Origin: an uncultured Verrucomicrobiae bacterium
Lineage (GTDB): Bacteria > Verrucomicrobiota > Verrucomicrobiia > Limisphaerales > UBA11358
NCBI GenBank assembly: GCA_963842445.1
Contig: CAWJHF010000017.1
Span: forward strand, 11,706-75,705
Direction: 5' to 3'
Length of the DNA stretch: 64,000 nucleotides
Part shown: in pieces, positions 7,820-9,559 of the stretch
Position numbering within the stretch: position 1 is the first letter of the stretch
Layout of the letters: every line of letters begins with the position of its first letter
Program-made: the position numbers and the translations under genes
Notes under the pieces: model-generated
The model's input: only the letters and a program-made list of their open reading frames with translations
What the model was told of the DNA's origin: nothing
The model's database searches: none

Positions 7820-9559
7820 TCAGTCAGACAGTGGCTCGGCAATCAAATCGTAGTCCGTGTGGCCGATGATTCTGACTTTCGCAAATTTGCCAATCGGCAA
7901 TTTGCCGTGAATAAAAACGCGACCATCAATGTCCGGTGCATCGGCCTCGCCGCGGGCGGCAAAAAAGTGACGAGTGACAGGTGACGCGTGACAAGATTCG
8001 CCATCACGCAACAAACCATGTTCCCAAGAGCTAACGCTGGCCAGCCGGAGCTGTTCATCGCTGGCACGGCCTTCGACGAGGACTTTGATTTCGCGGCCAA
8101 CAAAGGATTCGGAGACCTGCCGGGCGATTTTGTGCTGTTCGGCCATCGCCACCTTGCGGCGCTTTTGTTTCACCTTGTCGGGGATTTGTCCAGTCATCGC
8201 CCCGGCGCGGGTGCCGTCTTCCTTGGAATAGGTGAACACGCCGAGACGCTCGAATTTCGTCTCGCGGATGAAATCGAGCAGCTCCTCGAAGCACGCCTCA
8301 GTTTCGCCGGGAAAACCGATGATGAAGGTCGTCCGCAACGCGATGCCCGGCACGCCAGCCCGGATTTTCCGGATCAGGTCAACGATGTATTGCCGTGAGG
8401 TTTCGCGCCGCATCCGTTCGAGCATGTTTTCGTGGATGTGCTGGAGCGGGATGTCCACGTAGCGCGCAACTTTCGGGCACGCGGCAATCGTGTGGATGAG
8501 TTCGTCCGTCCAATGCGCCGGATGGGTGTAAAGCAGGCGAATCCAGAAATCACCTTTCAGCGAATTCAACTCGCGCAGCAGTGTGCATATGGTCGCGGCA
8601 TCGGGGGGAAGCGATCTGGCGGTGGCTGAAAATTTTTCCGGCGACGAAATGGCGCGCCTGTGGTTCGGGCGCAAATCGAGTCCGTAATAAGTCGAGTCCT
8701 GCGAAATCAAATTTAATTCCTTCACGCCATTGGCAATCAGTGCCTTCGCCTCGGCGACGATGTCCGCCTGTTGCCGGCTGCGGTGCGAACCGCGCATCCG
8801 CGGAATGATGCAGAAGCTGCACGGGTGATTGCAGCCCTCGGCAATTTTGACGTAGGCAAAATGGCGCGGCGTCAGGCGGAACCGCGGCGTGCCGAAATCG
8901 GGGATGAAGACAGGACGCTGGCTCACTTCGAGCAATGCTCCTCCTCGTCCTCGTTCTTGTCCATTATCCTCGATTAACGTGAGGCGTGAGGCATGAGGCG
9001 TAAGGGCGGTTTTGGCTTTGCCAAATTTTTCTATGCCACGAATGGCTTCTTTCTGTGCGTGTTCGGGTTGGGTGCGCCGTTTTTCCAATTCCGCAATCTG
9101 CTCCGTAATTTTTCCCTTCGATGTTCGATGTTCGATGTTCGATGTTCGATGCTCTTCCATCCGTTCCGCGCGTCTTGCCATCGCTTGTCTTGCGATTTCC
9201 GAAACCTGCGCGACCTGATCAATGCCCATGAAGGCGTCCACTTCGGGCAACAATTTGGGCAGTTCGTCGCGAAACCGCTGCGGCAGGCAACCGGAAACGA
9301 TAAGGCTTTGGCTGCGATTTTTCGCCGCGCGGACCTCGGCGGATTCGAGAATAGTGTCCACGCTTTCCTCCTGCGCCGCGTCAATGAATGAGCAGGTGTT
9401 GACGATGATGGCATCGGCCTGCGCGGGGTCGTTGGTAATTTCCACGCCGTCTTTGAGCAGCGCGCCGAGCATGATTTCGGCGTCCACCAGATTTTTGGCA
9501 CAGCCAAGCGAAATCAAACCGACGCGCAAAGGGCGTTTGCTGGAATTTTTCCCGGTCAC
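7820..9559 (-). CDS. rimO: ribosomal protein S12 methylthiotransferase RimO, carrying two extra in-frame segments
   Basis: UPF0004 N-terminal domain (LGCAKNLVDAE, NTCSFI), radical-SAM CNHPCSFCIIP, and a TRAM C-terminus. At 579 aa it is roughly 130 aa longer than the enterobacterial RimO I recall. Confidence 0.85.
   Translation of the reverse strand: MTGKNSSKRPLRVGLISLGCAKNLVDAEIMLGALLKDGVEITNDPAQADAIIVNTCSFIDAAQEESVDTILESAEVRAAKNRSQSLIVSGCLPQRFRDELPKLLPEVDAFMGIDQVAQVSEIARQAMARRAERMEEHRTSNIEHRTSKGKITEQIAELEKRRTQPEHAQKEAIRGIEKFGKAKTALTPHASRLTLIEDNGQERGRGGALLEVSQRPVFIPDFGTPRFRLTPRHFAYVKIAEGCNHPCSFCIIPRMRGSHRSRQQADIVAEAKALIANGVKELNLISQDSTYYGLDLRPNHRRAISSPEKFSATARSLPPDAATICTLLRELNSLKGDFWIRLLYTHPAHWTDELIHTIAACPKVARYVDIPLQHIHENMLERMRRETSRQYIVDLIRKIRAGVPGIALRTTFIIGFPGETEACFEELLDFIRETKFERLGVFTYSKEDGTRAGAMTGQIPDKVKQKRRKVAMAEQHKIARQVSESFVGREIKVLVEGRASDEQLRLASVSSWEHGLLRDGESCHASPVTRHFFAARGEADAPDIDGRVFIHGKLPIGKFAKVRIIGHTDYDLIAEPLSD
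7961..7995 (+). repeat. GTGACGN heptamer element (family G) inside the rimO TRAM region
   Basis: aaaaaagtgacgagtgac at 7961-7978 is identical to 50774-50791. aggtgacgcgtgacaag at 7979-7995 matches 50828-50844 at 15 of 17 positions. Confidence 0.9.
8942..9153 (+). repeat. composite of tandem-repeat modules inside the rimO interdomain linker
   Basis: tcctcgtcctcgttct at 8942-8957 is identical to intergenic 396-411. Four (C[GA]T[GA]AGG) heptamers lie at 8978-9005. Four perfect CGATGTT units lie at 9119-9146, plus one imperfect unit running to 9153. Confidence 0.9.

Follow-up and report, generated by a model that had tools for sequence, protein, structure and literature searches.

Overall, after analyzing a window of 64,000 nt from an uncultured Verrucomicrobiae bacterium of the order Limisphaerales (contig CAWJHF010000017.1; "the window" is this whole stretch), we found that rimO and an EgtD-like methyltransferase gene carry closely similar tandem arrays of the heptanucleotide GTGACNN. 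Both arrays are translated in frame, and both occupy slots that are filled in every orthologue compared. We consider each array to be, probably, an in-frame heptanucleotide microsatellite (four GTGACNN units plus a run of six A, or six T on the opposite strand) in a permissive protein loop. Such an array would change by frame-filtered slippage, concerted change of its units and allelic recombination, and would serve as a target for mini-hairpins. The features concerned are as follows.

7820-9559, minus strand: rimO, encoding the ribosomal protein S12 methylthiotransferase, 579 aa (Pfam UPF0004, Radical_SAM and TRAM_2; alignment to structure 4jc0; 120 orthologues at 76-83% identity).
7961-7995, minus strand: TRAM-loop slot array of rimO, sense TTGTCAC GCGTCAC CTGTCAC TCGTCAC TTTTTT.
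50281-51303, minus strand: gene for a Methyltransf_33 (EgtD-like) S-adenosylmethionine-dependent methyltransferase, 340 aa (Pfam PF10017; 120 orthologues).
50774-50791, minus strand: array half on the 3' side in the sense direction, A6 + GTGACGA + GTGAC, sense GTCAC TC GTCAC TTTTTT, encoding S-L-V-T-F-F.
50792-50827, minus strand: nested 36-nt imperfect palindrome, encoding PRIAAWPPRGFT, identified by its fold and missing from the contiguous arrays of relatives.
50828-50844, minus strand: array half on the 5' side in the sense direction, GG + GTGACGC + GTGACGA + G, sense CTC GTCACGC GTCACCC, encoding L-V-T-R-H-P.

A sequence-only reading of this DNA had described one element in two unrelated genes, and its anatomy was confirmed on the plus strand: the 18-mer AAAAAAGTGACGAGTGAC is identical at 7961-7978 (rimO) and 50774-50791 (methyltransferase gene), the 17-nt right halves match at 15 of 17 positions, which brings the total identity to 33/35, and the methyltransferase copy contains an extra 36-nt hairpin. 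The rimO copy (7961-7995) reads aaaaaaGTGACGAGTGACAGGTGACGCGTGACaag and is parsed into A6 (7961-7966), the units GTGACGA, GTGACAG, GTGACGC and GTGACAA (7967-7994), and a final G. The methyltransferase copy (50774-50844) reads aaaaaaGTGACGAGTGAC, the insert GGCGTAAAGCCGCGTGGCGGCCACGCCGCTATACGC and GGGTGACGCGTGACgag, and is parsed into A6 GTGACGA GTGAC, the 36 nt, and GG GTGACGC GTGACGA G. We agree that both copies represent one kind of sequence. An exact direct 18-mer pair was expected 0.05 times per simulated window; the few real pairs are located in paralogous genes, heptamer arrays and elements resembling repetitive extragenic palindromes (REPs), and GTGACGNGTGAC with at most one mismatch occurred 6 times in the window against 1.07 expected. 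Nevertheless, 33/35 is about the identity expected of two independent arrays of an A-run plus (GTGACRR)4; near-identical arrays are present in Acidobacteriota (aaaaaaGTGACGAGTGACAGGTGACAAGTGACaag in a Pyrinomonadaceae genome, L100; L and P numbers are our own labels) and in unrelated metagenome contigs. The GC spacer common to unit 3 of both copies was considered as a sign of intragenomic conversion and rejected, being non-significant; its position varies freely among orthologues (a coincidence of about 1 in 4, by estimate).

Structurally, the rimO array consists of direct repeats without a fold (z -0.7), and Tandem Repeats Finder (TRF) assigned period 7 and 3.9 copies to 7966-7992. Inspection of fold and sequence revealed no terminal inverted repeats, palindromic structure or duplicated flanks for either array. 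An Rfam scan of the window returned two tRNAs only, and no known RNA family accounts for the element. Strict period-7 arrays numbered seven in the window, compared with none in shuffles and at most one for any period from 8 to 15, and period 7 was assigned in 12 of the 42 TRF rows.

The behavior of such arrays inside genes follows from their period. Both host genes lie on the minus strand, and the frames of the two copies are offset by one base; the earlier translations were right, and neither open reading frame (ORF) is interrupted. Because 7 and 3 are coprime, whichever frame (GTCACTC)n is read in, its peptide is a cyclic permutation of VTRHSSL. HASPVTRHFF in RimO and VTRHPSLVTFF in the uninterrupted methyltransferase are phase variants of one heptapeptide repeat, which weakens the earlier argument that different frames exclude a protein motif. 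The GTCAC strand of the rimO array is stop-free in all three frames, and the GTGAC strand has a TGA stop in every frame, so that in-gene arrays survive in one orientation only; all coding copies found were in the GTCAC-sense orientation. The survival of arrays inside genes is therefore accounted for by a GTCAC strand without stops and by a 7-residue peptide repeat of which only the phase depends on the frame.

The rimO slot array is translated as S-C-H-A-S-P-V-T-R-H-F-F. A repeat-derived linker and the TRAM-loop slot make the rimO product ~130 aa longer than RimO typically is. Alignment to Thermotoga maritima RimO (4jc0), which has a 2-residue turn at this site, places the slot between TRAM strands beta1 and beta2, and in the AlphaFold2 model it falls between predicted strands 490-498 and 532-537, with residues 509-529 scoring below 50 in the predicted local distance difference test (pLDDT). 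The spacing between KVLVEG and DIDGRV is 27-30 residues in 98 of 137 full-length RimO representatives, compared with 57 in the window, and on this alignment the TRAM-loop insertion is judged lineage-specific.

Extra residues had been suggested at both sites. This proved correct for RimO but not for the methyltransferase, in which an uninterrupted array (VTRHPSLV) does not exceed the EgtD loop in length and only the 12-aa hairpin insert is extra. The protein is EgtD-like only, scoring far below the equivalog threshold for EgtD (TIGR03438 score 43, cut-off 291). In its AlphaFold2 model, residues 134-169 have pLDDT values below 50, the slot spans ~155-172, before beta4, and a strand is predicted at 173-177. 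The last unit and the T-run (GTC ACT TTT TTC, encoding VTFF) are native codons kept in orthologues with other unit types; they encode a beta-strand without variation in the methyltransferase family, where T175, F176 and G178 are invariant. The models served only for strand order and low-confidence loops. The ORFs are intact with all domains and the slots have low pLDDT, in line with an in-frame repeat peptide at a permissive surface site of a conserved, presumably functional protein, in the manner of Rickettsia palindromic elements.

We then compared the 120 closest RimO and the 120 closest methyltransferase sequences and checked the slot DNA of nine rimO alleles. The names carried by the closest homologues assign the window to Verrucomicrobiota, order Limisphaerales. 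No empty slot was found among the 120 + 120 orthologues, which argues against the earlier view of a single element recently inserted in two genes. The RimO slot lies between WEHGLLRE and [YF][LF]xARGEADAPDIDG. Its contents in the 120 orthologues are CCTCAAC units in 36, GTCAC/GACAC in 34, AATCCGC in 18, AACTCCG in 17 and a REP-like palindrome in 14, with peptides such as SRHSSPVTRH, SELRTPNSELRT, TLNPQPSTLN, IRNPQSAIRN and SRHSTLDTRH. At the DNA level, the rimO slot is (TCGACAC)x4 in L247, (TCCGCAA)x4 in L242, (TCCGCAC)x4 plus a deviating fifth unit, TCCGTAC, in L243, CTCTCAG CTCTCAA CCCTCAG CCCTCAA in L241, and a 72-nt GTAG-tagged perfect palindrome in L244. The methyltransferase slot, between DDLxxxL and TFFGMIPNFEP, holds ~31 uninterrupted VTRHPSLV arrays, that is, (GTCACNN)4, 13 GTCAC arrays with a nested insert, ~31 arrays of other heptamers (encoding SRITHHASRI, SRFTFHVSRI or ARPSTLVPRL, for example) and ~40 REP-like palindromes. 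When uninterrupted, both slot arrays have a constant length in all orthologues.

The sequence of the units turns over rapidly. Units of different lineages share phase and differ by 1-2 nt (TCGTCAC/TCGACAC and TCCGCAC/TCCGCAA). Between P0015 and P0033, whose protein cores are 1.2% apart, the slot peptides fit a T-to-C change in all four units (as read from the peptides). The rimO allele of ERZ19974741 (P0094, also L251) has the slot codons ESCHSSLVIRNYL, an in-register chimera of TTGTCAC TCGTCAC TTGTAAT CCGCAAT; its core is 2.1% apart from those of P0108 and of alleles that carry a pure CCGCAAT array. Judging by these codons, the slot is a recombinant of GTCAC-type and CCGCAAT-type alleles and provides direct evidence of recombination inside the slot. 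Within single genomes, a search for co-variation of unit type between the slots of rimO and of the methyltransferase gene was negative: the two slots of ERZ25039558 are of CCTCAR and SRVTAHA types, and contig_294 of ERZ25039480 combines an AATCCGC-type rimO slot with a GTCAC-type methyltransferase slot. All 120 orthologues are in frame, with copy-number changes in multiples of 21 nt, and no frameshift (on/off) variants were found among them, although contigs could miss rare variants.

Two further in-frame arrays are located in the linker of RimO.

8978-9005, minus strand: second rimO array, (CGTGAGG)x4, imperfect, sense CCTCACG, peptide TPHASRLT (TRF and sequence).
9117-9151, minus strand: third rimO array, five perfect TTCGATG units, sense CATCGAA, peptide EHRTSNIEHRTS (TRF score 70, 100% matches).

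Two or more slots of the ~100-aa linker are heptamer-coded, some orthologues add hairpin-derived segments to it, and its two slots show the same turnover behavior as the TRAM-loop slot. The slot at 8978-9005 is hypervariable in orthologues, with peptides such as QSAIRNPQS, PSTLDSRPST and PSSILHPPSS. The CATCGAA array has five units in the window and two in the orthologue L240, a difference of exactly 21 nt; three units are the only slippage step that keeps the frame. Depth spikes over 9117-9151 in soil metagenomes indicate that this unit is multi-copy in the community; a wetland metagenome has depth spikes at 7955-7999, and these spikes show that the arrays are multi-copy in such communities. 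The 35 nt at 9117-9151 repeat with a perfect period of 7 within the ORF of a housekeeping gene, where frameshift by slippage would be expected. Separately, 5146-5219 is 76% identical over 74 nt to the 3' end of rimO (7819-7892, the TRAM strand region), a likeness that suggests a second methylthiotransferase paralogue ending near 5146.

Presence and absence with clean empty sites was seen only for the nested 33- and 36-nt hairpins. The 36-nt insert (50792-50827) begins with GGCG and folds as DNA with -13.7 kcal/mol (z -2.4). It separates units 2 and 3 exactly at their boundary and directly follows GTGAC on the plus strand, and no further copy was found in the window at up to 3 mismatches. The contiguous arrays of L224 and ~30 orthologues lack it, and P0123, P0125, P0130 and P0152 contain it. 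A different, 33-nt element is found in rimO of L246 (GCCGGCCGCGCCGAAGCTTCTGAGCGAAGGCTG) and in the methyltransferase gene of L250 (GCCTGCCGTGCCGAAGCTTCTGAGCGAAGGCTG), where the two copies are 30/33 identical in different genomes. The three coding-slot inserts seen at the DNA level (window, L246 and L250) all follow the scheme GTGAC^NN, with the 2-nt spacer after the insert, and the end (C/G)GCGTAAAGC, which marks the mini-hairpin family that includes the 36-nt insert, abuts GTGAC in at least five contexts (the window, L250, L191/L235, L218 and L229). Nested hairpins range from 29 to 54 nt. The nested hairpins appear to be the genuinely mobile part of the system, and the GTGAC^ position points to site-specific insertion, for which we infer a responsible enzyme. 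Target-adjacent insertion is known for IS200/IS605-type elements, and the insertion of nested hairpins at GTGAC resembles it. Additionally, precise loss of hairpins between flanking direct repeats could explain some of the presence/absence patterns.

Arrays of GTGACNN with four or more units also occur far beyond this window, in many phyla and mostly as the arms of hairpins. A scan of one genome per species with the pattern GTGACNNGTGAC-N(2-32)-GTGACNNGTGAC returned at least 119 loci, and a metagenome scan for the 18-mer, with the A6 run in the pattern, returned at least 120. These scans give no copy number per genome and no taxon frequency, and with the GTGAC core set by the genome-scan pattern and A6 by the metagenome pattern, the conservation of neither feature can be read from its own scan. 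The following statements refer to the matches listed. The genome matches come from Acidobacteriota (many of them Pyrinomonadaceae), Cyanobacteria (Scytonema, Anabaena and Sphaerospermopsis included), Planctomycetota, Bacteroidota, Chloroflexota, Actinomycetota, Firmicutes, Proteobacteria and a few Verrucomicrobiota. The metagenome copies of A6-GTGACGAGTGAC are mostly hairpins composed of an A-run, array, loop, complementary array and T-run, which resemble bidirectional terminators, and single GTCAC arrays just 5' of start codons are also numerous in metagenomes. One such match, L186, shares the sequence of its right arm exactly with the L240 array in rimO. In-gene copies were found in other families, namely a DAGK/YegS lipid kinase (L140), CbiX chelatases (L152, L174 and L228) and PurL (L199), in each case directly before a hydrophobic strand. 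The number of units after A6 was two in 42 matches, three in 28, four in 40, five in 5, seven in 1 and sixteen in 1, and the spacers were variable.

Taken together, these data led us to propose a putative history for the two arrays. The old slot would be a surface loop just N-terminal of a beta-strand, constrained in length and free in sequence, and the T-run would encode the first residues of the strand (FF). Within such a slot, an array would be altered by replication slippage, of which only three-unit (21-nt) changes would pass frame selection, by concerted change of all units, and by recombination between alleles with different unit types. The arrays would also be preferred landing sites for hairpin elements of 29-54 nt, at the unit boundary 3' of GTGAC, and the 36-nt insert would be one of these. 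We infer slippage as the generating mechanism, and the slot peptides are most likely neutral passengers.

Several observations weigh against this proposal. The lengths listed have a four-unit mode with a sharp drop above it, in many phyla, and the units (L001-L239) combine a constant 5-nt core, fixed by the genome-scan pattern, with a variable 2-nt spacer of mostly purines. Plain slippage would be expected to produce a smooth length distribution and homogenized units, and the four-unit mode and the 5+2 architecture differ from both. Unrelated unit types swap at ~2% core divergence (P0087/P0120 and P0094/P0108), a pace that point mutation plus homogenization cannot reach and that requires recombination or templated conversion. 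Length polymorphism of plus or minus 7 nt within a population was not seen in the assembled contigs of Logan, which show depth spikes and no indels. Finally, the mean pLDDT is 58.7 for RimO and 61.5 for the methyltransferase, which makes the loop assignment only suggestive.

Part of this evidence would be expected if sequence-specific machinery, or a function of the DNA or RNA, keeps the arrays, for example as HUH/Y1 or GTSAC-type restriction-modification sites, hairpin arms or terminators. The sharp four-unit mode in many phyla (among the matches listed), which recurs in the GGGAATC arrays of Xanthomonas (PMC4692102), the invariant 5-nt core with its variable 2-nt spacer, the nested hairpins placed precisely after the C of GTGAC, and the terminator-like hairpins that make up most of the non-coding copies listed are all in line with it. 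However, the slots of close relatives hold CCTCAAC, AATCCGC, AACTCCG or unrelated palindromes, which indicates that no particular sequence is required; the coding copies lack a complementary arm or predicted structure, and no candidate protein was identified. We regard this explanation as unlikely. A bolder form of it, in which a dedicated single-stranded DNA machinery (e.g., of the HUH/Y1 type) writes four-unit 5+2 cassettes by A/T runs, inserts mini-hairpins after the core and rewrites loops, struck us as quite improbable.

A discrete mobile unit was another alternative. In this scenario, a 35-nt unit resembling a REP or a miniature inverted-repeat transposable element, consisting of A6 and four GTGACNN, would have been transposed into both genes and tolerated there because it is open in several frames. 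The neighborhood of rimO contains a gene that bears on this.

7358-7804, minus strand: IS200-like Y1 (HUH) transposase gene (Pfam Y1_Tnp; NCBIfam IS200 score 54.7 against a cut-off of 55).

The Y1 gene looks intact; on the downstream side of rimO, 15 nt separate it from the stop codon. An attempt to tie it to the repeats failed: no matching or related inverted repeats were found in its flanks, and it is absent beside rimO in the eight relatives L240-L247. Transposition of a unit would also fit the identity of 18/18 plus 15/17 at two unlinked sites, the A6-array module with unrelated flanks in many contigs, the wetland depth spike, the L186 arm that equals the L240 rimO array, and the in-gene copies in DAGK/YegS, CbiX and PurL. 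On the other hand, no site is empty in either orthologue set, the slots hold arrays of other units that agree in phase and length, the unit number (2-16 among the matches listed) and the spacers vary, and the array has no terminal inverted repeats, target duplication or palindromic structure. In the methyltransferase, moreover, native invariant codons make up the last unit and the T-run. The array also carries no GTAG/CGTC tag, which together with its lack of a palindrome separates it from REPs and REPINs, which are imperfect palindromes of 20-40 nt with a GTAG or CGTC tag, frequently arranged as inverted doublets. We consider a mobile array improbable for these reasons. Selection for a peptide motif (VTRH.. 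or ..SLVTFF) useful to both enzymes, to which the permutations of one heptapeptide in both frames and the structurally conserved C-terminal FF (VTFF in the methyltransferase) might point, is highly improbable and largely refuted by the alignments, in which only the flanking strand residues persist and the slot peptides of close orthologues are otherwise unrelated; the slot is modeled with low confidence, and the array DNA is common in non-coding hairpins of other phyla.

Our preferred reading, a translated microsatellite in an old loop, has partial precedents. Heterocystous cyanobacteria are said to contain short tandemly repeated repetitive (STRR) heptanucleotide sequences, in work from 1990 attributed to Mazel and colleagues, and a 1997 account attributed to Vioque reportedly places an STRR inside the cyanobacterial RNase P RNA gene. 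Similar to the STRR, the repeats described here are 7-nt tandem units that form many dispersed arrays, come in several types per genome and can occupy permissive in-gene positions; unlike the STRR, they lie in frame in conserved enzymes, at fixed slots across a Verrucomicrobiota order, and are short (4-5 units) with unit turnover. In Nostoc punctiforme, small dispersed repeats (SDR), the subject of 2008 work by Elhai and colleagues that PMC3116915 cites, are reportedly hairpin elements of tens of nucleotides, apparently mobile and nested in tandem heptamer repeats. The nested hairpins studied here belong to another phylum, have other sequences, measure 29-54 nt, keep a fixed position after GTGAC and are in frame in genes. 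Contingency loci provide a further comparison: simple sequence repeats (SSRs) in ORFs cause phase variation, e.g., the tetranucleotide and heptanucleotide repeats of Haemophilus. As in these loci, the in-ORF unit is not a multiple of three, and the perfect (CATCGAA)5 should be prone to slippage. In contrast to them, the hosts here are housekeeping enzymes and not surface structures, the arrays are in frame in 120 orthologues, lengths change in three-unit steps, and no on/off variants were found.

Heptamer SSRs are over-represented in bacteria, and Xanthomonas arrays mostly have four units (Rehm et al. 2015, PMC4692102, which cites Mrazek et al. 2007). The Xanthomonas GGGAATC and Nostoc GGGGAYT arrays of that study share with ours the period of 7, a conserved core with variable positions, a four-unit majority, inverted pairs that form hairpins, and variation of length and sequence between relatives at the same locus. 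However, they are intergenic and were read as G-quadruplex formers, whereas GTGACNN cannot form a G-quadruplex and is translated here. GTAG REPs within genes reach their highest number in the verrucomicrobium Opitutus terrae (Di Nocera et al. 2013, PMC3733652), and palindromic elements within Rickettsia proteins were described by Ogata et al. 2000, as far as that work is cited in PMC3733652. Both resemble our slots in contributing in-frame, repeat-derived peptides of 10-30 aa to conserved proteins (PMC3733652), and REP-like copies are present in purL and ctaA of the window and as palindromes in the rimO and methyltransferase slots of some orthologues. The arrays differ from intragenic REPs in being non-palindromic tandem repeats without a GTAG tag and without signs of transposition as a unit. 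Published work thus already covers heptamer SSRs and intragenic REPs in Verrucomicrobia; in the literature, we found no description of heptamer arrays as what they appear to be here, stable, translated and fast-evolving cassettes at fixed slots of conserved enzymes, with mini-hairpins nested at one defined place within the unit.

Several other repeats in the window deserve mention. The purL gene (21168-23756, minus strand) contains two GTAG-REP doublets of 74 nt each (21409-21482 and 22144-22217), which are 81% identical and in frame, with the peptides VGQASSLSQ...GDRQDA[CF]P; its product, formylglycinamide ribonucleotide amidine (FGAM) synthase, has 862 aa, which is long for PurL. A short heptamer array lies near these doublets, at 22351-22373. 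In ctaA/COX15 (57659-58969, minus strand), positions 58231-58296 hold an in-frame, REPIN-like inverted pair of the 22-mer GTAGCGCAGGCGTCCCGCCTGC (fold z -5.1), and the same 22-mer builds the palindrome that replaces the heptamer array in the L244 rimO slot. A heptamer hairpin was found between genes.

24984-25078, no strand assigned: intergenic (ATTTATG)n - GC hairpin - (CATAAAT)n (fold -23.5 kcal/mol, z -5.8).

The arms of this hairpin are complementary heptamer arrays, a design that it shares with most of the GTGAC arrays listed from metagenomes. Two (ATTTACG)n arrays, at 16074-16097 and 49302-49332, have exact 18-mers in common, and the latter is flanked by a tRNA gene (49219-49292) and by a pterin-binding (folP-like) ORF whose ATG is at 49341. 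A 29-nt repeat, TCAGAGGGCGGAGTTCCACGACGCCTTGA, occurs with 93% identity at 40496-40524 and at 50239-50267, just past the stop codon of the methyltransferase gene, and may be a further dispersed element. On the minus strand, a run of repeats of 380-500 nt at ~45680-48750 (families D1-D4, 62-81% identical) has the appearance of paralogous domains or genes in tandem.

When the unit length of a repeat in an ORF is not divisible by three, the repeat is usually taken for a phase-variation switch or for damage; here it is a stable, translated part of conserved enzymes across an order. The frame of these 7-nt arrays is kept by selection while their sequence turns over fast. The slots therefore constitute a natural experiment on the unexplained excess of heptamer SSRs and their frequent length of exactly four units. 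They also indicate that repeats can build sizeable protein segments, the RimO linker being a case, and annotators and users of alignment-based methods should be prepared to meet hypervariable, repeat-coded loops in proteins of Verrucomicrobiota. The GTGAC^ insertion point offers a testable lead to a candidate site-specific activity, and the four-unit quantization, the 5+2 architecture and the GTGAC^ insertions leave room for a more active, sequence-specific mechanism. If a dedicated machinery did exist, housekeeping loops of Limisphaerales would be overwritten in frame, which would amount to a natural rewriting of short peptides with unit types exchanged between loci.

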